The position numbers and the translations under genes are program-made. From an uncultured Planctomycetaceae bacterium (GTDB lineage Bacteria > Planctomycetota > Planctomycetia > Isosphaerales > Isosphaeraceae): 64,000 nucleotides of DNA. The DNA lies in the NCBI GenBank assembly GCA_963833985.1, contig CAWIAD010000002.1, positions 3,360,001-3,424,000 of the forward strand. The letters are read 5' to 3'. The notes under the pieces were generated by a model. That model was not told the DNA's origin. It did no database searches and saw only the letters and a list, made by a program, of their open reading frames with translations. Shown in pieces: positions 9,606 to 27,017 of this stretch. Positions within the stretch are counted from its first letter, which is position 1. Each line of letters starts with the position of its first letter.

Positions 9606-12404
9606 ATGGGAAGATCCCGTAAACTGCTCTCACTGGCGCACCGCTCGGCCTGGTATCAGGCCGGCGCCGTGGTCTTCTGGCTGGCACTCCTGGCTGCCGA
9701 TCCGGCGGGCCTGTGGATCGCGGCAGCCATGCCTGGCAAAGCGACAAGCTTCCCGAGGGGACGGTCACCGAGCTGCGGATCGAGGGCAACACCACCATCC
9801 CCACGGACAAGGTGCGGGGCAAGCTGCTCAGCCGCGCCGGCCAGCCGCTCGACCAGCAAAAAGTCGAGGCCGATATCAAGAGCCTGTACGCCACCAAGTG
9901 GTTCTCCGAAGTGCAGGCGCGTTACGACGAAGCTCCGCCCCATAGCCACAAGTTCGTCCTGGTTTTCCGGGTACGCGAGATGCCCGTGATCAAGTCCGTC
10001 GAGTTCCGGGGCCGGAAGGGCGTGCCGCTCAAAGAAATCGAGGAGAATACGGACCTCAAGGTCGGCAACCGTGCCGACCCGACCAAGACCCGGCTCGCCC
10101 TGGGCCAGGTTCAGCGGCTTTACCAGGAAAAGGGCTACGAGCTGGCCGAGGTGAAGCTCATCGAGGGCGGGAATGCCGGTGACCTGAGAGTCATCTTCCA
10201 GATCTTCGAGGGCCCCAAGTTCAAGATCGCCAGCGTCGACTTCAAGGGGAACGTGTTCGCCTCCGACTCCCAGCTCTGGACCAAGATCGGCAGCCGCAAG
10301 CCGATCCTCGGCCTCCTGGGGGGCAAGTACCACCGCGAGATGCTCGAGGAAGACAAGGCGCAAGCTGACCGACTACTACCAGTCGCAAGGGTTCTTCGAG
10401 GTGAAGATCACACCCGTGACCCGGGCGGGTGCGAACCTGGGAGACATCAACCTGACCTTCGTGATCTCCGAGGGAACGCGCTACAAGGTGCGCAACCTTG
10501 TCTTCGAGGGAAACCACCAGCTCAAGACGGCCGAGCTGCGCGAGGGCTTGCAGCTGCACTCGGGCAAGCCGTTCCTCGACACGGTGCGCGAGGCCGATCT
10601 GAGATTGATGATGTCGCGTTACAACGCGCTGGGCTGCATCAAGACCGAGATCGCCTACGAGCCGCGCTTCACCAACGAGCTGGGCGTGGTCGACCTGGTG
10701 TACAAGATCGAGGAGCATGACCCGTACCTGCTGGGCGAGCTGAAGATCGTCGGCAACACACGGACCAAGGACAAGGTCATCCGCCGCGAGGCCGTGATGG
10801 CGGGTCTCTTGCCAGGCGAGGTCCTGGACAAGAACCGGATCGAGATTTTCCAGCGGCGGCTCCAGTCGCTGGGCTACTTCCACAACACGCCGGAGATGGG
10901 CAAGCCGCTGGAGATCAAGATCGTCAACGAGCGGCCCAAGGACAAGCCCTACGGGGACCTGATGATGCCGCTGCTGGGCGAGGGGGGATCGCAGGCCAGA
11001 ATGCAGGACCCGGGACCGGAGGTCGATCTGGTTCCGGCACCCGAGCCGCTCCCCGCGCCGAGTAACGTGCCCCGGCTGGAGCCGAACAACGGGCCGGCGG
11101 GCGCTGCCCCCTTCGGCGGAGGCAACCTTTTCAGTCCCGATCCGGATTCCACCCCTCCCATCGTGGTGCCACCGCCCAGGACCCCCGGCCGGCCGCCTGG
11201 CGCGGCGCCACCGCAGGGTCGGCCCTCGGCTGTGCCGCCGGTCGGGTCGGGAGAGCCCTCCGGTACCTTTCCCAGCGTGCCCGGCCTGAACATGACGGAC
11301 GTCGGGCCCGACCGCCAGGATCCGTTTCCCAATCGCGCGTTCGCGGACATCGTCACCGCCGTGGACGAGGCCCCCACCGGCCGGTTCATGGTTGGCGTGG
11401 CCGCCAGCAGCTTTCAGGGGCTCTTCGGCAACTTCACCGTCTACGAGAAGAACTTCGACCTCTTCAACTTTCCCAGGTCGTTCAACGACATCTTCAACGG
11501 GACGGCCTTCCGCGGTGCGGGCCAGGAGTTCCGCATCGACGTCCAGCCGGGCACAAACATCAACCGCTTCCAGGTCAGCCTGCGAGAACCGTACCTCTTC
11601 GACCTGCCCATCGGGGCCGGCGTCGCGGGCTACTGGTTCAACCGTTTTTACCCGGACTGGGACGAGCGCCGGGGTGGCGGCCGGTTCTCGCTTGGCCGGC
11701 AGTTCGGCACGAGCATCTACGCCGATACGGCCGTGCGGGTGGAAGACATCAATTTCTACGGCTTCCGCACGCCGGCCCCCGCGCAGTACCTGGCGGCCGC
11801 GGGCGAGTCGTTCCTGGCTTCGATCCGGCCGAGTCTCCGCTTCGACAACCGCAATAGCCCGTTCCAGGCGACGAAGGGACAGTACGCGGAATTCGCCGTC
11901 GAGCAGGGCTGGGGCACCTTCACCTGGTCCAAGTTCGACGCCGAGGGCCGTGCCTACTTCACCACCGGAACCCGTCCCGACGGGACCGGCAAGCGGTTCG
12001 TCACGCTCCGCGGACACTTCGGCATCGCCACGCAGGGCATTCCGGTCTACGAGCGGTACTTTGCTGGTAACTTCGGTAGCCTGCGCGGGTTCCAGTACCG
12101 CACCGTGAGCCCCCACGCCCTGGGCGTGCCGGTCGGTGGCGTGATGATGGCCCTGGGCTCAGTGGAGTACCAGTTCCCGCTCACCGCCAGCGATGCGTTC
12201 CAGCAGGTGGTCTTCACCGACTTCGGCACCGTGGAGGGCGACTACACCTTCACCAAGATCCGTGCCTCGATCGGTACCGGCCTGCGCATGAAGATTCCCC
12301 AGATGGGCCCGGTTCCACTGGGTTTCGACCTTGCCTTTCCCATCGCCTACGCAGAGGGCGACCGGCTGCGTTACTTCAATTTCAGCATGAGCGCCATGTA
12401 CTGA
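9606..12404 (+). CDS. bamA: Outer membrane protein assembly factor BamA; frameshifts near 9722 and 10358
   Basis: POTRA repeats (IEGNTTI, VGNTRTKDKVIRRE), barrel motif SLRGF and an aromatic C-terminal strand; three ORF pieces join into one gene. Confidence 0.9.
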
Positions 12405-14457: not shown

Positions 14458-16822
14458 TCACGGCGGCAGGTCACGGTCGAGGTCGCCGCCGATCCATGCC
14501 GGGTCGGTGTAGCCGTAGCGCGACATCACGGCGACCACGGCGTCCGGATGCTGGACGAGGATCTCTGCGCCCTCCACCAGCGCTTCGGGCGCGCGGCCAG
14601 CAGCCGGTCCAGCAGTAATCGCCGCGTCGCAACGGCCTTCTGGCTGGGTTGACGCGTGAGCAGGTTAACCAGGCGCTTTCCCGCCTCGTCGGCCGGCGCC
14701 CGCGCGCGGTGGCGACCTGCCGGGCGGCTGCCACCAGGCCCTGCGCGTCGCTGCGAGCCCAGTCGAGCACCGCCTGGTTCAGAGTCAACCGGTTCACCCG
14801 GGGCGGCTCCTTGGGCAGCGGATCGGGGGCATCCAGCAAGAGCTCGAGCGCCAACGCCCGGGAGACGGCCACGGGGTCGGCCACGGACACGACGCGGAGA
14901 CCGTCCAGTTGCCCGGGCCTGCGCTCGTACCAGGGATGCATGGCGAAGAGCAGCCGCGTGAATGCCGAGGACTTGGAATCCTGGGTCTGCATCCAGACGT
15001 AGCCGATCCTGTCGTACTCCCGGTAGTGCTGCTGGACATCCTCGCCGAGCTTGATGTCGCCGCGGAGCTTGCCCAGCGTTTGCAGCTCCTCGAAGGTCAT
15101 GGGATTGGTCATATCGTTGGGGAAATCGACCTCGGCCCCGGTTGGCAGCCGTGCGTTGATCTCATCGAGCGTCTGGCCGTTGAAACCGTCGAACCAGTAG
15201 GTGAGCTCGAAGCCGCGACGCCACGCGCCCCGCGGCCCTCCGATCAGGGTGTTGTAATACGAAAGCTCGAACGGGTGGATCCGCGCCAGCTCCACGGCGG
15301 CAGGGACGATCACGACGAGTCCCAGGCCCCATGCGGCGAGTGCCGCGGGCAGGCCCGTGCGCAGCGCGAGTGCCCGGGCCAGGGCCGCGGTTCCCCACCC
15401 CGCGTAGGCTGCCAGAAAGAAGAAGGTTGGTAGGAAAAGGCGCACGCCATCGTGGGCGGGCGTGGTCGGCAGCATCCGCAGCGCGGGGAGTGCCAGAAAA
15501 TGGACCAGGAAGTAGAGGGGCAGCCGGTCCTGGCGCATCCGCCGAAAGGACCAGACCAGGCCCGCCACCGAGGCCCCCAGAATCGTCACCGGCACCGTGA
15601 TCGCCAGCAAGACCCAGCCGTTGTGCCAGGGGAGCGTGTACTCGTAGATCTGCCCGAAGTAGATGATCTGGATGTCGGGCAGCGCGGCCCGGCGATTACC
15701 CGAGAGTGTGTAGTAATGAGCGAGCCGGATCAAGGTGTCGCGCCACCAGGCCGGGTTCCCCAGCCAGCCGACGAAAGGAGCGAAGGCCAGAATGGCGGTC
15801 CAAGTCTCCAGCGCGGGCCGTTCCACGCCCCAGAGCTTGCTGCCCGGGAAGACCCGCCCGAGCAGCCTGCGGATCAGCCAGACAAGGAGCGGCAGGGCCA
15901 GGATCGCTCCGGGCAGGTCGCTCGTGGGCCGGTTGATGAACAGGTTCGCCTGGGCGGGAGGGGGAAGCTGCCTCTGCATGCCCTGGATCTCCAGGAAGGC
16001 CAGTCCCAGCGGAGCGAGCATGAGCCCGGATGTGACCAGCCCGTCAATCCAATCCGCCCGGCTGCCGGTACGCCAGAGCGAGCGCGGCAGGTGGCCGAGG
16101 ACGAGCCACAGCAGGAGGGGCAGCAGCACGCCGACGGCCGCCAGCTTCTCCACGAAGGCCAGGCCCAGGAGCACCCCGACCGCCACGCGCCACCAGCGGG
16201 CCTTCTCCTCGTACAGGCCCTTCCAGAACGCCAGCGCGGTCGCCGCCCAGAGCAGCAGGCCGGGGGTGTCGGTGTCGACCAGATGGGCCTGACCGTAGAG
16301 CCGCGGCATGAGCAGCAGCGCGCCGGCCATCACCAGCCCGGCGGTTGTCCCATAACGTCTGGCCAGGAAGCCGTAACCGATGGCCACGGTGAGGGCGAAC
16401 TCGATCACCGACGCCATCCGCCGCGCGGGGATGTCCTGCATCCACGAACCGAAAAGGGCGTGTGTGGCCAGGTTCATCTGGCCGGCGAGGGGAGGGTGGA
16501 AGTTGATGCCGAAGCGGCCGTACGGCCAGTAGTACAGCAGCGTCTGGGGATCAAGCAAATCGTGGACCTCGCTCCACGAGCGGGCATGACGAAGCTGCTC
16601 CCACCACTGGGCAGACATCACCTGGCTGTAGCGGTAAGCCGGCTCATCCCAGGTCAGGCCGATATCGCCCGTGGTCGGCACCAGCACCACCAGGGCCCCC
16701 GCGCACACCAGGAGCGGCGACGGTCTCCAGCGTGCCTTGCCGGACTGAAGCCGGCTGGCGGTATCCGTGTCCGTCCGGTCCGCGTGCGTGCGTTCTGCGG
16801 TCAGCGCGGGCGCGGTCATCAT
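14458..16822 (-). CDS. GT-C fold glycosyltransferase (ArnT/GT39-like); two C-terminal frameshifts near 14705 and 14585
   Basis: TWDEPAY, NFHPPL, HDGVRLFLP and PFELSYYN motifs with many TM helices; the repaired end reads ...RYGYTDPAWIGGDLDRDLPP*. Confidence 0.82.
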
Positions 16823-16887: not shown

Positions 16888-17733
16888 TCAGACATGCACG
16901 CCCAGCACGCGGCGGAAAGCCAGTGCCGCAACCATGGAGACCGCAAACCAGTAGATCACCCAGGTATCGGTGCCACAGGTCCAGGCGGACCGTTCTGGGT
17001 AGGCAATGGCGATGGAGCGGACCGGCGAGCCGGTGCCGAAGGGGGCCTCCCCGGGGTTGAGGAGGACCTCCAGCAGGTCGCGGCCCGGGCGGAGGGCGCT
17101 GACGCGCAGAAAGCCGTCACCGACGGCCAGTTCCTTCTCATAGCTCTGGCTGCCCGTGTCGAAGACCAGGCGGTGCACGCCGCTCTCCCTGGCCTGGATC
17201 CTCCAGAGCAGCTCACCCTTGCCGCGCACGTGCACGGGGCCGGCCATCACCGTGGCGGCCGGCGTTGGCCGGAGCGTCACTTCCGGCCAGGCTTTATTGT
17301 CCGCGCAGTCGAGTGCCAGCCGGACGACGGCGTCCTCTCCCACTCGCAAGGGGCGGGCCTGGTACCAGAGCGAGAGCTGCGCCAGCAGCAGTACCACGGG
17401 CAGGGCCATCACCAGCATCGGCACGAGTGCCAGCATGAGGAGCTGCAAACCTCCGCCGAGCATCCGTCCCTGGGCGCGCAGGGTCACGGCGGTGCTGTCC
17501 TTGAACAGCCGCAGGGCCAGCAGGTTGGCGCTGATCTGGTCGCGCACCCGTTGCACCGCGGCCTGGTTCGAGGTGTGCTTGAAGACGACGAGCAGGCCGA
17601 TGCCCGTCACCGCCGAGATGAGCGTGGCGGAGACCCATCCCGGCACGATCGAGATTGGCGCAAGCATGAGCCGGCCCAGCGCGCTGGCCGCCAGGTTCAG
17701 CCAGGCCAGAATACGGAGGAGCGCTGTGGTCAT
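16888..17733 (-). CDS. Membrane protein, possibly DUF106/EMC3-TMCO1-like
   Basis: TM helix, amphipathic segment, PMLVMALPVVLL helix, soluble beta-rich insert, then C-terminal WVIYWFAVS..FRRVLG. The CDS is solid; the family is inferred. Confidence 0.65.
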   Translation of the reverse strand: MTTALLRILAWLNLAASALGRLMLAPISIVPGWVSATLISAVTGIGLLVVFKHTSNQAAVQRVRDQISANLLALRLFKDSTAVTLRAQGRMLGGGLQLLMLALVPMLVMALPVVLLLAQLSLWYQARPLRVGEDAVVRLALDCADNKAWPEVTLRPTPAATVMAGPVHVRGKGELLWRIQARESGVHRLVFDTGSQSYEKELAVGDGFLRVSALRPGRDLLEVLLNPGEAPFGTGSPVRSIAIAYPERSAWTCGTDTWVIYWFAVSMVAALAFRRVLGVHV

Positions 17734-17914
17734 TCAATGTATCCCAGGCCGCGCAACTGGTTGGTGACGTGGGCGTCCTCCTCCTTCACCTTCATCCGCG
17801 CGACCTCCTTCTCCACGCAGGCCGCGATGAACTCCTCCACACAGCTGTAGCCGGCGGCCTCGGCCGTGCGCTGGCGCGCTCGTACAGTCCCGATTCGATC
17901 TTCAGCTTGACCAT
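17730..17914 (-). CDS. Small protein (about 61 aa), ribbon-helix-helix-like with an LRGLGYIE tail; frameshift near 17873
   Basis: Strong RBS AAAGGAGA before ATG 17914; repaired sequence MVKLKIESGLYERAQRTAEAAGYSCVEEFIAACVEKEV...NQLRGLGYIE; ATGA overlap with the next gene. Confidence 0.75.
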
Positions 17915-17962: not shown

Positions 17963-20008
17963 TCAGCCACGGAGCACGTTCTTGCCCACCATCTGCGAGG
18001 GGACATCAAGCCCGAACTCGGAGAGAATCGAGGGCGCGATGTCCACCAGCGACGGTGATCCCCGGGCGATGCGCCGGTTGCAGAAGAGCACGCCCGGCAC
18101 CTCGAGTGCGTCGGCGCAATGGTCGGCGCTCCAGGCCGAGTCATTGTCGAGCAAGACCTCCTCGGTGAGGTCGCCCAGGCAGGTGGCCCATGAGGCACGG
18201 TAGCCGCGGGCGTAGCCGATGATGAGGTCCGGTGCCAGTCCGGTCGCGTTCCCTGAATAGATCTGGTCCGAGCGGTAGACACCGCGGATCACGGGCTGGC
18301 CGTCGCGATCGGTCAGGGCCGTGAGCCGGGCGGTCAACTCGGCAAGCACGGCCTCGCGCTGCTCTCCCGGCTCGACGATCCCGTCGCGCTCGCGGCCTTT
18401 CATGTTGAGGTAGAGCCCGTTGATGCCCAGCCCGTAGGCGATGGTCTGGGACCAGTCGGCGTCGCGGAGGATGGAGGTGCACTCGGGCGGGCCGAGATAG
18501 CCCCAGGCGCGGAGCCAGGAGTTCAGGTTGAACTGGCGGCCGAAGTTGGCGAAGCCGTGATCGCTCATCACCAGGATGGTCGCCGTCTGACCGTAGCGGT
18601 CCAGCAGGTCGCCGATCACCGTGTCGAGCTTCTGGTACAGCCGCTGGACCTGGCCGAACCGCGCCTTCGCCTCCGGGCCGGTCCGGATCGGGTGCCGGGC
18701 GTCGGAATCCCACCAGAAGATGTGCGACTGGAGATCGCTGCTGGAGAAGTAGAAGAACAGGAGCCCGTCCTCGTAGTTGTCGATCGCGTATTCGAACAGC
18801 CGCAGCCGTTCTTCCAGCACCATGTCGGCCTGCCGGGCGTACTCATCGTCGGAGAAGACGCCGTTGGAGCGCGCCTTGTGGTCCTCCTGAAAGCCGGTCG
18901 TGTAAAAAGGCCCCAGCGCCCCGGCCACATCGGAGACGAACGAGGTCGGCTCGGACATCTTCTGGGCTGGTCTGGCCGGGTCCATGTTCACCGGGGTCAC
19001 ATAGAGCTTGAAGACCGGAGCGACCTCTTGAAGGTAGAACCGGACGATCCCGGAGACGTGTTGCCCGGGCAGGAACGAAGGGGTTGAGAGGGCGAAATCC
19101 AGCTTCGTCCACGGGCTCCACTCACCGGCCCCGAGCACGATCGTCCGCCCCTGGAGCTCGATGGCCGCGGCATTCGCCGCGCGGTCGCGATGGACCAAGA
19201 AGTCGACCAGGATCGGCCGCGGCTGTTTTCGCAGGCTGTCGTCCGGACCGACAAGCCGAGCGCTCGACGTGTCATCGTCGAACCGGAGGCGCGATCGCTT
19301 TCCCCCGCCCTCTTCCACGGGCTCGGCCGGCCCGTCCTCGGCGAAGTACTGGTAGGTGCCGTAGGTGCCGAGCATGTCGGGCGTCCCCATCCCGCAGAGG
19401 CAGCGATGATGGCCGTGATGCGAGGGGCTGGCCGGATAGTTCGACGGCAGGTCGTAGAAGGTTGACGGCACGCCGGCCGCGTCGAGATAGTCCCAGAACG
19501 GTGTGCCCTGCCGGCGCAGGACCGTTGCCGGCGGCTTGTGGTTGAAGGGCCAGAAGTCCAGCGGGATGCGGTGCTCGCCCAGCTCCCAGGCGCCCTGGCC
19601 GGGAACCGTTTCGGCCGCGGAATAAAAGGGTGCGCACTGCTCCTCGGGATGGCGGTGGATGAAGTCGAAGATCCCGTGCGAGCCCGGCCCCGCGCCATTG
19701 ATGAAGTTGGCCCAGGCGACCGGGCTCTGCGGCGGAACGCTTGTGCCCAGGCCGCTGAAGCCGCCGCCCGACCGGAGCTTCGCCAGGTTCGGAAGCATGC
19801 CGGCGTCCATCATCCGCCCGCACAGCCGCGGGTCCATGCCGTCGACGCCGACGATGATCACCTTCTTGCCCAGGCTCCGCGAGACATGGCTGCCGCGCCC
19901 CAGCCAGTGGTTGCCCGCGCCCAGAGCGGCCACTCCGGCGGCCGTCGCGGCGGCGCCCTTGAGAATCGTCCGGCGGTTGATGCTCGTGTCCGCTCCGCTG
20001 CCAATCAT
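17963..20008 (-). CDS. Alkaline phosphatase superfamily (type I phosphodiesterase/NPP-like) protein with Tat signal
   Basis: Twin-arginine leader INRRTILKG; GVDGMD, PPQSPVAW, SDLQSH, SDHGF and WSADH. Confidence 0.88.
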   Translation of the reverse strand: MIGSGADTSINRRTILKGAAATAAGVAALGAGNHWLGRGSHVSRSLGKKVIIVGVDGMDPRLCGRMMDAGMLPNLAKLRSGGGFSGLGTSVPPQSPVAWANFINGAGPGSHGIFDFIHRHPEEQCAPFYSAAETVPGQGAWELGEHRIPLDFWPFNHKPPATVLRRQGTPFWDYLDAAGVPSTFYDLPSNYPASPSHHGHHRCLCGMGTPDMLGTYGTYQYFAEDGPAEPVEEGGGKRSRLRFDDDTSSARLVGPDDSLRKQPRPILVDFLVHRDRAANAAAIELQGRTIVLGAGEWSPWTKLDFALSTPSFLPGQHVSGIVRFYLQEVAPVFKLYVTPVNMDPARPAQKMSEPTSFVSDVAGALGPFYTTGFQEDHKARSNGVFSDDEYARQADMVLEERLRLFEYAIDNYEDGLLFFYFSSSDLQSHIFWWDSDARHPIRTGPEAKARFGQVQRLYQKLDTVIGDLLDRYGQTATILVMSDHGFANFGRQFNLNSWLRAWGYLGPPECTSILRDADWSQTIAYGLGINGLYLNMKGRERDGIVEPGEQREAVLAELTARLTALTDRDGQPVIRGVYRSDQIYSGNATGLAPDLIIGYARGYRASWATCLGDLTEEVLLDNDSAWSADHCADALEVPGVLFCNRRIARGSPSLVDIAPSILSEFGLDVPSQMVGKNVLRG

Positions 20009-22308
20009 GAGACCACCTCGGCCAGTTCTTGCGCGGGCTTGCTCGACGGTAATGCAGGCTCATCCCCGATCACCAGCGCCCTGCCGTCCATGTAGTCCGG
20101 AACCGGCACGCCGAAGAGTTTCAGTACCGTGGGTGCGATATCGATCAGGCGCGGGTTCGGGGAGGCGATGGGATGGTTGGAAAAGAGGATCCCGGGCACC
20201 AGCGACGGATCCACGCAATGATCGCCGCTCCACGCCTTCCGGTTCGAATGGAAGACGCTTTCGGTGGTGCGGCCGATGGCCGTCTCCCAGGCCACGCGAT
20301 AACCGCGCTGGTAACCGACGATCAGGTCCGGAGCATTTTCGCTGTAGGGTCCCCGGTAGAACCGGGAAGCGATGTAAACCCGCTTGACCGCACTCTCGCC
20401 GGTTTCCGGGTCGCAGAGGCCGGTCAGCCGCTCGACGATCTCCTCGCGGAGCCGGTCTGCCTCGGCCCCGGGCGACACGATTCCCTGCGCAAACTTGTCC
20501 TTCACGTTCAGGTAGATGCCCGCAAGGCCGATCGCGAAGGCGCGGGTGCGGCTCCAGTCCACGCCCGCCAGATGGTCGGCGTCGCCCTTGCCGGCGAGCA
20601 CGAGATAGCCGTTCTCTTGCAGCCAGCGGTTCAGGTCGACTCCACGCCGGAACGGACCGAAGCCATGGTCCGAAAGCACCAGCAGCAGCTCGTCCTTGCG
20701 CCGGCAACAGGCGGACGTCCTGCCCACCAGGTCGTCCATCCGGCGATAGAGATCCTCGATCACATGCCGGCCTTCCCGGACGGCCGGATCAGGACGCGCC
20801 GGATGCCGCTCGTCGATATCGCGCCAGAACGTGTGCTGAAGGCGGTCGGTGCCGTCGAACACGCACGCGACAAGGCCGCTCGGCACCTTCTCCAGCGCAT
20901 CGAAGAACATGGCCTCGCGCTCGCGGTCCATGTCCAGGCACTGCTGAATGAACTGGTCATCGCTGATCACGTGCTCGTTGAGCGCCCAGGTATCCTCGGC
21001 CAATCCCAGCGTGGCGAACGGACCTTGCTTCCTGGCGAGATAGACCGGGTACACCGCCGGATACCCCACGGGCATCACCGCGTGCTCGGGGTCGATGTTG
21101 ATCGGCGTGACATAGAGCTCGAACTCCGGCTCGGTGCTCAGCAGCAGGAACTTGCAGAGCCCGCGCACCGTTACACCGGGGACCACCCGGAACGACACGC
21201 GGATCCAATCCGTGTAGACATCCCGGGCAAGCTTGAACGTCTGGCCGCAGATCTTCAGTTTCGCCTGGCCCGGGCCCGTGATCGTGACGGCGAACGGAAG
21301 CCTCATCTCACCGTGCCGCGGCCGCAGGGGGTCCTCCGGACCAACGAGCGCCGCGCGGACCACGTTCCCGACCCGCCTGACGCGATGGACGTCGCCGCCG
21401 GTCCGCTCGCCCTCGGCTTGCGCACGGGTCGTGTAGAAAGCGAACATGCCCTGCGTGCCGCGCAGGTCCGGTACGCACATCGCGGAAAGCAGCACGCCCC
21501 TGAGCTTTTCAGGCGGGTAGGTAATCGGCACGCGCAGGATGCAATTGAAGATGCCGTAGCCGCTGAGGATGCTCCAGAAAGGCTGGCTCTTACGCAGCAG
21601 GCGCACCTCGGCCTTCCCGAGCGGAATGCGGAGCGGGCCGATCCGGATCGCGCGGCGCGGCGGATGGACCTCCACCGAGCTCAGCTTGGCGTGGTAGTGC
21701 GTCAGGTCGGGCGTCAGAAAATCAAAGATGTTGTGCTTGCCGGGGTTCACGCCGGTCTGGAACGTTGACCAGGCCACCGGCGAAAGCGGGGGCACAGTCG
21801 TTCCCAGCGGCCGGAAGCTCCCCTGGGAGCGAAGGGCCGCCAGGTGGGGGAGCTTGCCCTCGGCCAGCATGCGTTCGGTCAGCTCGTGATCCATGCCGTC
21901 CAGGCCCAGGATGACGATCCGCCGGAACCGGCTGCGGTTCAGTCGCCGCAAGGAAAGCAGCGATCGCACGAGCAGGCGGACGGGCCAGGTGAGGAAGGTC
22001 AGAAGCGCCGAGAACACCGCGGCGAAGACCGTGAAGAACGACCCCGCCAGCGCGAACCCCGCCCCCGGCCCGATATAGGCGTGCGCCTGGCCGGGCGCCA
22101 GTAGTAAAAGAAGCAGCACCAGCAGCACCAGCCGCCCGCGCTTGCGAGCCATCGATCGCGCGGCAGCGGCCCGTACTTGCGTCCGCTGCGCCCCGCCTGG
22201 AGTTCCGTCCGCCGCCTGCGCCCCGAGCCGTTCCCCCGCCGATTGTGAGGGAGCCGCGGTCAGGCCCGCCCCGCGCGAATGACGGACGCCGGAGAGCCCA
22301 TTCATCAT
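20005..22308 (-). CDS. Alkaline phosphatase superfamily (NPP-like) protein, membrane anchored
   Basis: AHA-YIGPG plus TM helix; GLDGMD, PPLSPVAW, TDRLQH, SDHGF and WSGDH; the start could be near 22152 (MARKRG). Confidence 0.88.
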   Translation of the reverse strand: MMNGLSGVRHSRGAGLTAAPSQSAGERLGAQAADGTPGGAQRTQVRAAAARSMARKRGRLVLLVLLLLLLAPGQAHAYIGPGAGFALAGSFFTVFAAVFSALLTFLTWPVRLLVRSLLSLRRLNRSRFRRIVILGLDGMDHELTERMLAEGKLPHLAALRSQGSFRPLGTTVPPLSPVAWSTFQTGVNPGKHNIFDFLTPDLTHYHAKLSSVEVHPPRRAIRIGPLRIPLGKAEVRLLRKSQPFWSILSGYGIFNCILRVPITYPPEKLRGVLLSAMCVPDLRGTQGMFAFYTTRAQAEGERTGGDVHRVRRVGNVVRAALVGPEDPLRPRHGEMRLPFAVTITGPGQAKLKICGQTFKLARDVYTDWIRVSFRVVPGVTVRGLCKFLLLSTEPEFELYVTPINIDPEHAVMPVGYPAVYPVYLARKQGPFATLGLAEDTWALNEHVISDDQFIQQCLDMDREREAMFFDALEKVPSGLVACVFDGTDRLQHTFWRDIDERHPARPDPAVREGRHVIEDLYRRMDDLVGRTSACCRRKDELLLVLSDHGFGPFRRGVDLNRWLQENGYLVLAGKGDADHLAGVDWSRTRAFAIGLAGIYLNVKDKFAQGIVSPGAEADRLREEIVERLTGLCDPETGESAVKRVYIASRFYRGPYSENAPDLIVGYQRGYRVAWETAIGRTTESVFHSNRKAWSGDHCVDPSLVPGILFSNHPIASPNPRLIDIAPTVLKLFGVPVPDYMDGRALVIGDEPALPSSKPAQELAEVVS

Positions 22309-22318
22309 CGCTGCCCTC

Positions 22319-24474
22319 TCACTTCGGCTCCGGTGCCTTCGGCTCCAGCTCGTCGATGTTCTTACCAGGCGTCAGCTTCTTGCCGGCGAGGCCCGGGTAG
22401 TCCGGATCGTAGCGGTAGGCACGGAACACGCTGCCTCCGCCCGGAGGCCCGCCGAATCCCGGAGGCCCGCCAAATCCCGGAGGCCCGCCAGGACCACCGG
22501 GAGGCCCGCCAGGACCACCGGGAGGCCCGCCAGGACCACCGAATCCGGGAGGTCCCCCGGGACCGCCACCGGGCGGGGGACCACCGTCAGGTCCGGGACC
22601 GGCACCAGGTGGTCCTCCCGGACCGCCCGGCCGACCATGACCGAACCCCGGCGGGCCGCCCCGCGCAAAGTCGTCGCGCATCCGCTTGAGCTGGTCTTTC
22701 TGCCTGGCCGAAAGCAGCGTGTCGAGCTTCACGTCCACCCGCTTCTGCAACTGCACCACCTGGCTTTTCTGATCGGGGGTGAGCTTCAGCAAGATCTGGG
22801 TGGGAAGCGTCATGAGCTGGCCGGGAGGGGTGAACGCCCCGGGCCCGAAGCTGCCGCGAGTCTCGAGCCTTTTATGCTGGTCGGCCGACAGCAAGGCCTG
22901 CAAGCTGTCGCCCACTTCCTTCTGGAACGCGTCCAGGTCCTTGCGCTGCTGGGACGAAAGGTTGAGCATGTCTCTGAGGAAGAAGGGGAGCACGTCGCCA
23001 GGCCGGGGCGGTCCGAACGGTCCTCCCGGTCCCATGCGCTCCTGCACCGGATTGACGTACTTCCAGACGATCTTGCCCGCCGGCGTGACCTCGAAGATCG
23101 TGCCGTTGTTCCCCGAGCAGATGAGCGTATCGCCGTTGGGAAGCCGCTGGGCACCGGAGATCGTGGCCGAGAAGAAGTCGGACCTCTTCGGTGCCGAGTA
23201 GCTCCAGAGCGGCTTGTCGGGTCCGAAGGGTGCACCCTCGGCGCGCGTGTAATGTCCGGAGGAATCTACCGGCAAAGCAATCTCCTCGACCGACGAGTAC
23301 TCGCCGCCGGGACGCCTCATGCCGTTGTTGTAGAGCAGGATGTGGCCCGCACCCGGTCGTCCTTTGGGAATCCAGTGCGTGTTGTGCTGATGGAAGAGCT
23401 GCTGATCCTGCGCGGATCCCGCACGATAGCGCGCGGGTTTCCCCAGCGGTAGAGCAGGTCGCCTCCCTTGCCGGAGCGGCCGCCCTGATGCCCGGCGGCT
23501 TCCGCGGTCGTGGTGCTGTGGTCGATGATCCAGAACTCGCTGAAGCCATGCACGCTCATGACAATCTGGTCCAGTTCCGGGTTGTAGTCCACGCCGTTGA
23601 TGTGGGTCCAGTCCGGCTCGAACCGCTGCGGTCCCCCCTTCCTGCCCGCCGGAGAACCGCCCAGGTAGCCGATCGACTTGAGCTTGTCGATCCCCGCCTT
23701 GGTGGCCAGCAAGGGCGCGATCGCGTTGTCGTCGTAGTTGATGTCCACCCGCTCCGGATGCTCGGCCACCTTCCCGTAGTTTGGTTTGGCCGCATCGTAA
23801 TCCTGGATCAGGTGGTCCCAGAGGTGCCACTCCCAGACAACCTCGCCGGTCGTCTTGCCGGTCGGCTTCACTTCGTAGAGCGCATCGAGCTGGAACGGCC
23901 GGTCGCCGGTCAGCTCGGCCTTGCGGCCGGCCGCGACGGCCTCCTCGGGCGTCTTCCGGTCCCAGACGATGAGCACGACATGGCCGCTGGGCAGCTTCAT
24001 GATGTCGTGATGGGGAAGCTGCTTCTCGTTGGCGAAGCGGTAGTCCCACACCAGGGAACCGTCCCAGGTGAACTCCTGGACCCGGCCACCGGCACCAGGG
24101 CCTCCGCCAAACGGCTGGTCCCGCAGCTCTGCCGGTCGCAGCAGGTGACCATTTTCCAGCAAATAAGCGCTCAGGGCGGGGTGCGCATCGCTATCCCAGG
24201 TCCGTACGGCACGTCCCTGCATGTCGATCAGGTAGGTCTTCAGCGACTTCATCGGTGCCAGCAGAGTATACCCCTGGAACGCTCCGGGATCGTTCGTCAC
24301 CAGGCCCCGCTTGACCTTCGGCTGGTCGCTCGACCCGCCCGGACCGTCCGCCTGCGCGGCACCCGCGCCCTTGATCGACAAGGCGAGGCCAGCGGCGAGA
24401 ATGGCAATGGCCGTGGAAAGCGTTGCCGCGATCTGCATCGCCGGACGCATCCAGCTCGTGGTCCGCACTCTCAT
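22319..24474 (-). CDS. Aryl-sulfate sulfotransferase (ASST family) with helical and Gly-Pro-rich C-terminal extension; frameshift near 23428
   Basis: Signal peptide; GYTLLAP, HHD, DWTHINGVDY, YRWGNP, QHNTHWI, SGAQRLPNGDTLI and VFRAYRY. Confidence 0.87.
22435..22665. repeat. Coding GGPPG(F)/GGP tandem repeats
   Basis: 18-bp and 21-bp units such as ccggaggcccgccgaatc and ccgggaggcccgccaggacca within the sulfotransferase tail. Confidence 0.85.
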
Positions 24475-25296: not shown

Positions 25297-27017
25297 TCAC
25301 CTCGACAGCGCTGGCAGGCCGGATTCCCGCTCCGCCTTTGCGTACTCCGTCATCGCAAAGATCCAGACGAGCGGCACACCGAACTTCGGGACCGCGTAGG
25401 CCGGGCTTGCATGCTCTACCAGCCACCGGTCCATCGCCGACCAGGCGCTGGGCGATTCTGAAGCACGTACCATGCGGGCAGGCCGCGGTCGAGCGGCTCC
25501 AGCCGGTGCGGCAACTCGCCGACTTGCCGCAGGTACAGCCAGGACGTGGGGAAGCTTGCAAAACGGACCGTCTCACCAGGATGCGTCTGCTCCCGCAGCC
25601 ACTGCCGCGCCCGAGCATCCAGCGCGTCCCAGTAATACGTGGGTTCCATGCCCAGGCGCACGGCGCCGGGAAGGCCACAGGCCAGCGGGCTGAAGTACGA
25701 TAGCGGGACGGGCATGAAAAGGCAGACGCTGGCGACGGCCTCGGCCATGGCGGCCGCCACCAGCATCCGGGCACGGCCACCGAGGGCGTCGATGGCCTGC
25801 CTCGCTCCCATCGCAACCAGGAACGAGAGAACTCCGAAGGCCGGCAGGAAGAGGCGCACACCGTCGTGACCGGGTGTGTGCGGCAAGGCCCTGAGCACGA
25901 TCAGCAGCACCCAGTTTGCCACGACCAGCACGCCGATGCGGTCGGTCTGGCGCTGGCGAAGTCCCCGCAACGTACCCAGTATGGCCAGCAGCAGCAGGCC
26001 GACCGGGGTCACCAGGACGGTCCAGACCAGCGTGTTGTACCAGGGGAGCGATTCTCGGGGCGTGAGATAGACCAAGCCCAGGAACTGGACCGGGATGGGG
26101 ATGGTCTGCCCTCGTGAGAGGTTCGAGTCGAAGAAACGGAGCACGCCCGCCAACGGCTCGGTCCACCAGGGGGGATTGCAGATCAGCAGCACGCCGAGAG
26201 CCAGCGGCAGCCCGAGCAACAGGGCGAGCGCTGCGCGGCGGTCGCGCGTCCATGCCGTCCAGAACAAGAAGGGCAGAGGCAGGAACCAGCCGGTGAGCTT
26301 CGTCGCCTGGGCACAACCCAGCACCAGCCCGAAGACGAGTGTGGCTGCCGCATGCGGTCGGCGGTCGCGGCCCGAGCCTGATCTTCCCGCATCCGACCCT
26401 GGCGGCACCGCCTCGGCGAAAGCCATGATCGCCAGGGCCCAGAGCGACGTGAGCACGCCGTCATAGGCAGCGTAATGTCCGTGGCCGAAGAGGTTGGGCT
26501 GAAAGACCCAGGCGGCAGCAGCCGCCAGCCCGGGCACCAGGCCCCAGCGCCGGGTGCAGAACCAGAACAGGAACCCGGCCGTCACGCTGAAGAGCGCGAT
26601 GGGGCCGAGCCGCGCGCGGGGCAGGTCCTGCCAGGAGGGCGTTAGCAGGTCGCCCAGCAGACCCAGCAACGCATAAAAGGGCGGGTGGCCATGGGGCTCG
26701 GCCCGCGCGAACGGCCAGAAGTAGGCGAGCACCTGGGTGTCGAGGAGCAGCTTGCCCCGCGTATTGACGGCTTCCGGAGCAGGGGCGGACGCTCCCGCCT
26801 GCTGGACCAGCTCCAGGGTGGGAGGCGTCCAGTGCCTGGCGAAATCGGCCGGATCTCGCAGGGCGTGGAACCAGGTACGCAGCCTGGCCTCGCGGCCCAG
26901 GGTGTAGCCCTCGTCCCAGACGATCGCCATCCGCGGTTCGGTGGCCAGCATGATGCCGAGGGTGGCAAGGCCCACCCCCAGGCTCGCCATCACCAGACGG
27001 CCATCAGAACGTCTCAT
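25297..27017 (-). CDS. Second GT-C (ArnT/GT39-like) glycosyltransferase; frameshift near 25448
   Basis: VWDEGY, GHPPF, HDGVRLFLP, LSYFS and EPTYYWD; paralogue of 14458-16822; the repaired end reads QNRPGAWS...LSR*. Confidence 0.82.

Follow-up and report, generated by a model that had tools for sequence, protein, structure and literature searches.

A bacterial protein family, very probably of the three-TM Oxa1 branch, in operons with paired alkaline phosphatase-superfamily enzymes

INTRODUCTION

Oxa1 proteins move short tails that lie beside a transmembrane segment (TM), and a short N-tail before a TM is their typical substrate class (PMC7616256). In the work cited here, the three-TM branch of the Oxa1 superfamily is presented as archaeal and eukaryotic (PMC5868721, PMC8887752, PMC8675477, PMC8662606, PMC5898192, PMC13734099, PMC7616256), and YidC is named as the bacterial form (PMC8675477, PMC7616256, PMC8662606, PMC5868721). 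One of these texts has a similar heterodimer absent in bacteria (PMC8675477).

We describe a bacterial family that we place in the three-TM branch, together with the gene module in which it is found. Our literature search, which covered main texts with few subscription papers among them, returned no description of the family or the module; bacterial members may be among the homologues that PMC8887752 lists. It is already the case that automatic annotation labels some family members DUF106: the JGI name "uncharacterized membrane protein (DUF106 family)" stands on 6 of the 120 homologues listed.

RESULTS

The gene and its locus

The window is the whole stretch of DNA analyzed, 64,000 nucleotides of contig CAWIAD010000002.1 from an uncultured Planctomycetaceae bacterium (positions 3,360,001 to 3,424,000). 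The gene under study, here the target gene, is the last of a core module, listed with its neighbors:

16888..17733, minus strand: Oxa1-like target gene; 281-aa three-TM membrane protein of the Oxa1 superfamily (Ylp1/TMCO1 type) with an inserted Ig-like domain
17730..17914, minus strand: small protein gene, ~61 aa, with an L-x-G-L-G-Y tail; its stop overlaps the target start (ATGA)
17963..20008, minus strand: AP2, AlkP-superfamily enzyme (PF01663); twin-arginine signal, predicted exported
20005..22152, minus strand: AP1, AlkP paralogue (PF01663); signal peptide, YIGPGAG tail, one TM, basic stretch
22319..24474, minus strand: ASST (PF05935), an arylsulfotransferase; its gene is an accessory one in Planctomycetia and occupies two frames here

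We place the start of AP1 at 22152, inside a listed ORF that runs to 22308; its YIGPGAG tail starts at 22077. The motifs that we take to be the Ser nucleophile and the metal ligands are kept in both AP1 and AP2 of this window. Against PDB sequences, AP1 gave no match at E<=0.01.

The small gene is split here by a frameshift after ~14 codons and is intact in relatives. Three genes of the window, bamA (9713-12404, plus strand), ASST (22319-24474, minus strand) and the small gene (17730-17914, minus strand), are each split over two frames, probably through assembly indel errors. GT-C (PMT_2) glycosyltransferase genes flank the operon at 14471-16822 and 25416-27017, both on the minus strand, and the former seems frameshifted near its end. 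We considered this downstream GT-C gene as a module part and rejected it, its homologue occurring in 0 of 140 loci.

The target ORF has a coding pattern of GC by codon position (0.70/0.48/0.88), and a wrong-frame artefact was rejected. The gene is present once in its 10.2-Mb, 96%-complete genome, and the sequence had no plasmid match.

Layout of the protein

Hydropathy reveals three TMs, and the parts of the protein map as follows:

17665..17730, minus strand: N-terminal amphipathic helix, residues 2-23 (helix H2-23 in the model)
17362..17640, minus strand: TM1 (32-54), cytosolic helical hairpin (57-~100) and TM2 (to 124)
16996..17358, minus strand: inserted Ig-like beta-sandwich, residues ~126-246, from DSSP on the model and structure searches
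16918..16965, minus strand: TM3 (H5) with invariant W258 and with S266 (S/T 96%), then K/R274

The initial annotation had picked out a TM ending in VFKHTSNQ, a helical segment after it, a VPMLVMALPVVLL helix, a C-terminal tryptophan-containing helix and an extra soluble stretch between the last two helices. All five features are present. TM1 with its VFKHTSNQ end covers residues ~32-57, the helical segment is a hairpin (57-~100), the VPMLVMALPVVLL helix is TM2 (to residue 124), the C-terminal helix reads W258..YW...S266....RRVLG, and the soluble insert between TM2 and TM3 amounts to ~120-130 residues. Within TM1, hairpin and TM2 the family conserves S40, S55, Q57, P105, P112 and Q119. The helix of residues 2-23, which aligns with the N-terminal region of the archaeal protein MJ0480 (Ylp1), presumably corresponds to EH1 of the Oxa1 fold. 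We infer an N-out/C-in topology from basic residues after TM1 and TM3 and from the extra TM of two kinase fusions (L199 and L200, below). The Ig-like insert is predicted to be extracytoplasmic.

Homology to the three-TM branch

Pfam and NCBIfam scans of the target protein returned no match, including none to PF02096 (YidC) and none to PF01956 (EMC3_TMCO1; gathering cut-off 27.1 bits). PF01956 likewise found nothing in the target's own genome and 0 of 78 close relatives. Family profiles reached further. A narrow profile of those 78 sequences (A1), compared with PDB sequences, put MJ0480/Ylp1 (5C8J) first at E 0.0093. A diverse profile of 118 sequences (A2) gave two matches at E<=10, of which the top one was again MJ0480 (5C8J), at E 6.2e-9; it covers positions 16-122 (TM1-hairpin-TM2) and, separately, the W..S segment of TM3. 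Nine of the 118 A2 members match PF01956 at E<=0.1 (best 1.4e-6). A profile of a sister family, class II (A4), also had 5C8J on top (E 1.2e-9).

A homology search with the target returned 881 homologues among 7999 scored candidates, the nearest named relatives being Isosphaeraceae and Gemmatales MAGs, and a profile search returned 2460 clusters at 50% identity, fragments included. In the Atlas, unnamed clusters appear at 0.95-0.96, most commonly from Aminicenantota and Acidobacteriota (few records), and one cluster at 0.85 has PF01956 on 17% of its members, which we treat as a lead only.

Model, fold and groove

An AlphaFold model of the target (pLDDT 95.9, pTM 0.89) has, in order, the N-terminal helix, TM1, a short hairpin, TM2, the beta-sandwich at ~126-246 and TM3. 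Its helices include H2-23, H57-76 and H81-124, and the hairpin aligns with that of MJ0480. When the model was compared with 48,161 chains, 7TUT chain 8 came first over residues 28-281 (Z 10.8, rmsd 3.0, 126 aligned), a match in the packing of the three-TM core; this Z lies below the tool's caution level of ~13 for helical proteins and is insufficient alone, and, as far as a model can tell, it agrees with the independent sequence result. The ranks just below were mostly short helical matches (Z<=8.3). YidC 3WO7 gave a weak whole-length match (Z 7.4, rmsd 7.6). A class II model also had 7TUT chain 8 on top (Z 11.5, rmsd 3.1, 140 aligned). From its 177 residues, set against the lengths of the other subunits, and the composition of the complex, we take chain 8 to be probably TMCO1. 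The composition used is that of the multipass translocon in PMC9630114, which does not mention 7TUT. Among the best 50 structure matches of either model, 5C8J was absent and no title named an EMC or GET complex.

Foldseek gave no match at E<=0.001 for either model. Its rows were mostly Ig-like or beta-sandwich chains, the best match for the insert was an SbsC S-layer domain (E 1.4e-3), and re-examination added nothing further on the core. Against Ig-like domains the insert scored VIA Z 5.4-6.7.

In the described H5 groove pattern, positions -3, +3, +7 and +11 are polar, -1 is aromatic and a Trp sits at the interface (PMC8675477, section 8). With the register that we mapped from the A2-MJ0480 alignment, the family keeps W258 (100%), an aromatic at 262 (-1; 89%), S/T266 (+3; 96%) and K/R274 (+11; 86%), as well as S40 (79%) and Q119 (89%). 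TM3 has lost polarity at +7, which is A/G in 95%, and at -3, which is mostly aliphatic; class II has mostly lost the +3 Ser too. Read from the alignment, the groove appears partly polar, and less so than in MJ0480. A complex prediction of the target with the AP1 anchor (52 aa) scored 0.00, but its controls did not fold.

We are highly confident that the family is homologous to the three-TM (Ylp1/TMCO1/EMC3-type) branch, and we file the target in the Oxa1 superfamily as neither a PF01956 member nor a YidC. The initial annotation had likened it to DUF106 rather than to canonical YidC, and the A2 match to MJ0480, the absence of PF02096 and the three TMs bear this out. In the comparison with PF01956 that it proposed, the protein itself came out negative; the family profile matched MJ0480. 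The profile and the structure search each found a match to the Oxa1 core, whose absence from both would have spoken against the annotation.

The class I module

Class I was examined in 118 loci: 80 of the 145 named ones, taken from the best down, 31 of 57 other strong phylum matches and seven from a search of the phylum of genome G401. Module counts come only from loci with enough flank; the loci were picked best-first or for long contigs, and related ones are not independent. The small gene adjoins the target upstream in 106/110 loci, two AP genes are present in 79/86 and at least one in 85/86; the operon-dedicated character that the initial annotation proposed is borne out by these counts. 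The tail pattern of the small protein, which follows an acidic linker, was matched in 98/114 loci.

The AP1 layout of signal, tail, TM and basic stretch recurs in 73 distinct sequences found by motif search. From this order the catalytic domain of AP1 is predicted to be cytoplasmic. The Tyr motif of AP1, Y-x-G/D-P-G, is present in 81/86 class I loci; the tail is better conserved than the TM behind it, partly by construction, the 81/86 being the unbiased count. A strict twin-arginine pattern (regex) fits 55/93 AP2 N-termini; by eye, most of the others resemble Sec, lipoprotein or anchor segments or a less strict twin-arginine signal. Variants of the module occur. L184-L187, from the phylum of G401, have AP1 without an adjacent AP2, and the surroundings of L184 and L185 are glycosyltransferase genes rather than sulfate genes; in L162 and L163 the exported AP is the only one. 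No further recurring small membrane-protein family was seen among the neighbors of 81 loci.

In two loci, L202:927-8764 (plus strand) and L203, AP1 and AP2 are separated by an LVIVD-repeat gene, and a UDP-glucose dehydrogenase gene comes after the module. L203 adds a HAD-UbiA gene, and the region in both is a surface-glycan cluster.

Sulfate genes near the module

Sulfation genes join the class I module in two lineages. In locus set A, 58/76 loci have a PAPS-type sulfotransferase gene downstream and 35/47 have ASST. Set C has ATP sulfurylase in 12/19, APS kinase in 15/19 and a sulfotransferase in 0/20, and set D has 3/14 for sulfotransferase, 0/12 for ASST, 2/12 for ATP sulfurylase and 3/12 for APS kinase. 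Sulfotransferase neighbors were assigned to PF00685/PF13469. No sulfotransferase adjoins the module downstream in this window; elsewhere in the same genome are a 42%-identical sulfotransferase homologue, an ATP sulfurylase and an APS kinase. In several distant loci (among them L172, L189-L191, L194 and L195) no homologue of sulfotransferase, ASST, ATP sulfurylase or APS kinase was found, and therefore a group other than sulfate may be transferred in some cases.

The upstream regions of L155, L156, L159, L161, L164, L167, L169 and L170 encode another small protein, whose tail reads L-x-N-L-G-Y-L. There it precedes ATP sulfurylase, sulfatase-like and APS kinase genes, and the APS kinases end in similar tails. 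The target's own genome (G000) has other AlkP-family genes at C2:5842444-5851897 and C2:5117093-5118941, the former region also containing two L-R-x-L-G-Y tails and the sulfotransferase homologue just mentioned.

Class II and dikinase fusions

Class II consists of all 22 weak-match loci fetched, of 33 weak matches, and makes up 140 loci together with class I. The two classes align with an hhalign probability of 99.8, and in a quick, unrooted tree a branch with support 94 sets class II apart. This tree has no archaeal outgroup because a search aimed at archaeal DUF106 returned 11 proteins, none with an archaeal name. PF01956 matches 14 of 19 class II proteins at E<=0.01, four of them above the cut-off.

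AP genes, the small gene and the Tyr motif are absent from all 22 class II loci. Instead, a PPDK_N/PEP-utiliser (dikinase-type) gene stands beside the class II gene in 20/20 loci. A PQQ-type propeller gene is found in 16/16, a weak test given how common such repeats are. The gene order is PQQ-propeller, PPDK/PEP-utiliser and then the Ylp1-like gene (L133-L152), and the propeller starts with a short tail, a TM, a basic loop and usually a second TM. The two classes have a layout in common: the Oxa1 fold goes with a TM that has a short N-tail, with a partner outside and with an enzyme in the cytosol that activates or transfers a group. We looked at the class II propeller as an EMC-like protein and rejected this: EMC1_N matched weakly (E 0.0083) in one of five propellers scanned. 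The layout of EMC1 differs from that of the class II propeller.

In two loci the kinase and the Oxa1-like protein form a single chain, joined by one additional TM (L199:3929-7453 and L200:6106-9159, both plus strand); the fused cytosolic kinase part of L199 is ~860 residues. The extra TM is consistent with an N-out topology and with the protein being needed in stoichiometric amounts. Dikinase domains are linked to an Oxa1 fold once more in the same two genomes, where a YidC-type 60KD_IMP core is fused to PPDK_N, PEP-utiliser and PilZ (L207:4070-8434, minus strand, in G234; L208:116-3508, plus strand, in G344). The L207 fusion also carries rhodanese. Both fusions adjoin a prephenate dehydrogenase gene, and their genomes also have canonical YidC. 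Our literature search found no description of a YidC-core-dikinase fusion.

Distribution and co-occurrence with YidC

Of 401 genomes sampled from the phylum, 91 gave one match each (58 strong and 33 weak). The locus of G401 carries the label Desulfobacteraceae, and in the phylum of that genome 8 of 201 genomes gave a match. Closer to the target, the gene occurs in 3 of 13 other genomes of the genus and 9 of 36 of the family and was not found in several near-complete close relatives. A weak, short match to the TM1-TM2 part (G003:C13:11080-11358, plus strand; E 6e-6, 155-aa open frame) was seen in the close-relative search and is unreported for G003 in the phylum survey.

Canonical YidC (PF02096) scores above cut-off in the target's own genome, elsewhere than at the target locus, and was found in 20/20 carrier genomes chosen for this test. 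G074 has, in addition to the main YidC, a second, short PF02096 protein of at least 338 aa (L209:73-1089, plus strand). The target gene is accessory, additional to YidC. Given its patchy presence, the YidC in 20/20 carriers and a groove that appears to be partly polar, we conclude that the target protein is no housekeeping insertase. The trait of arCOG02673, the housekeeping archaeal YidC, of standing near-universally beside secY and ribosomal genes is not found in the target family.

DISCUSSION

We read the target protein as a likely permanent membrane subunit, the link in an inside-outside group-transfer module, and give this a probability of about 0.5. Homology, model fold, gene order, co-occurrence with YidC and the class II fusion are observed; the functional steps are proposed from sequence, model and analogy. 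An activated group, most likely sulfate from PAPS, would pass from AP1 inside to AP2 outside, with ASST, where present, as a further outside acceptor enzyme. AP1 would be held at its one TM by the Oxa1 core. The cytoplasm-open groove of this core and a thinned bilayer would let the Gly-rich YIGPGAG tail reach the AP1 active site for loading, and the loaded tail, via its conserved Tyr, would then face the periplasm for unloading. The likeliest class I chemistry would be sulfuryl transfer from PAPS to the Tyr of the AP1 tail and on to AP2 or ASST. The Ig-like domain may dock the outside enzyme and the hairpin may bind AP1 or the small protein.

Each element has some precedent. AlkP-fold enzymes can act as sulfotransferases (PMC11980604), Tyr shuttles operate in DltX and PatA (PMC12148441), and some aryl sulfotransferases accept tyrosine peptides, their natural substrates being mostly unidentified (PMC13426309). 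The Tyr carrier is still the least certain step of the relay and takes up somewhat more than half of the figure given above, the rest going to a scaffold role with another carrier. Nor can it be a general step, since AP genes, the small gene and the Tyr motif are all missing from class II. More tentatively still, the Oxa1 fold may have been recruited more than once in bacteria as a group-transfer conduit (the class I AlkP pair, the class II dikinase and the YidC-dikinase cores), with class I flipping a sulfate-loaded Tyr N-tail from PAPS to periplasmic enzymes.

Might the protein instead be an insertase or chaperone dedicated to its operon, as initially annotated, which catalyzes the insertion or assembly of the AP1 anchor (or, in class II, of the propeller's hairpin anchor) and then releases it? 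Both classes encode a partner with a short N-tail and a TM, the residues W258, S266, Q119, S40 and K/R274 are retained, and Ylp1 binds nascent chains (PMC5868721). We consider this the main alternative, but less likely. Every carrier tested already has canonical YidC, the groove appears partly hydrophobic, the AP1 Tyr tail is more conserved than the TM that would be inserted, and the fusions of L199, with its large kinase, and L200 would be odd for a catalytic biogenesis factor. The fusion of class II to a dikinase in two genomes favors a permanent subunit over a catalytic insertase. Of the annotated "insertase or chaperone," membership in the Oxa1 branch stands, on the A2-MJ0480 match, and the role becomes less likely in view of the seemingly only partly polar groove, the presence of YidC and the class II fusions. 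A general back-up insertase from archaea, unrelated to its neighbors, would explain the homology to Ylp1. Against it, the operon context is fixed across deep branches, presence is patchy, and the neighborhood lacks the secY and ribosomal genes that flank the gene in archaea (PMC5898192). We give it very little credence.

Two further readings also involve transfer across the membrane. In the manner of a scramblase, the groove might turn over an intermediate linked to a polyprenyl lipid or a glycerophospholipid, which AP1 or the dikinase would have loaded, and so deliver it to the enzyme outside. Lipid scrambling by Oxa1 proteins is described both in vitro and in simulations (bioRxiv 2023.09.01.555937), some loci lie amid GT2, sugar-transferase, UDP-glucose dehydrogenase and UbiA genes, and no Tyr is needed, so that this would fit class II too. 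It leaves the conserved Tyr tail unexplained, however, glycan genes are no constant part of the module, and the groove appears less polar than that of Ylp1; we hold it to be improbable. Even less probable is that the small soluble protein is the carrier, with the Tyr of its L-x-G-L-G-Y tail loaded inside and the tail threaded through the groove as in a tail-anchored protein. The adjacency of its gene, which here overlaps the target start, and its recurrent tail pattern speak for this. Yet a tail so short and polar seems ill suited to membrane passage, the gene is missing from class II, and similar tails end other proteins in the target's genome and in the loci, which suggests to us a docking motif.

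What would follow? A bacterial family of ~2,460 clusters at 50% identity changes the picture of the three-TM branch as archaeal and eukaryotic, and bears on where that branch arose. If the group-transfer conduit is real, a universal machine would here serve for something other than insertion. With sulfate as its cargo, it would also provide a new export route for activated sulfate, and periplasmic arylsulfotransferases would gain a natural donor of aryl sulfate. Two questions would then become testable: by what path activated sulfate gets to acceptors in the periplasm, and which substrates arylsulfotransferases use in nature, described as unidentified (PMC13426309).

Comparison with known systems

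The target shares with archaeal Ylp1/MJ0480 (DUF106, PF01956, COG1422; 5C8J) the three-TM layout and the conserved Trp, aromatic and Ser of TM3. Unlike Ylp1, it is bacterial, with an Ig-like insert of ~120 aa between TM2 and TM3, a shorter hairpin and a less polar TM3. Its gene sits in an enzyme operon rather than in a secY/ribosomal cluster, with no EMC6-like neighbor seen. YidC (PF02096) has a five-TM core, whereas the target has three TMs and no extra TM hairpin, in a genome with a separate yidC.

The likeness to TMCO1 (of GEL), EMC3 and Get1 lies in 7TUT chain 8, probably TMCO1, being the top match of both the target and the class II models. Those proteins pair with OPTI, EMC6 and Get2 and insert ER proteins, while the sole conserved membrane partner seen among the target's neighbors is the single TM of AP1. 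Agl30 and Agl31 of Halobacterium are described as AlkP-superfamily enzymes that act as sulfotransferases, one membrane-bound and one soluble, and in this they would resemble AP1 and AP2. They differ in being sulfatase-like and in acting on a dolichol-linked glycan, with no Oxa1-fold partner in that description.

In the DltB/DltX/DltD and PatA/PatB systems, MBOAT and SGNH proteins take part, and neither is seen among the neighbors of the target family, which are PF01663, PF05935 and PF00685/PF13469. By analogy, the module would further depart from them in having AlkP-family enzymes on both sides, the Tyr at a mature N-terminus, and sulfate or phosphate rather than an acyl group in transit. The logic that we propose would be the same as theirs: a cytosolic donor, a membrane subunit, a Tyr on a tethered tail and an outside enzyme with a Ser nucleophile.
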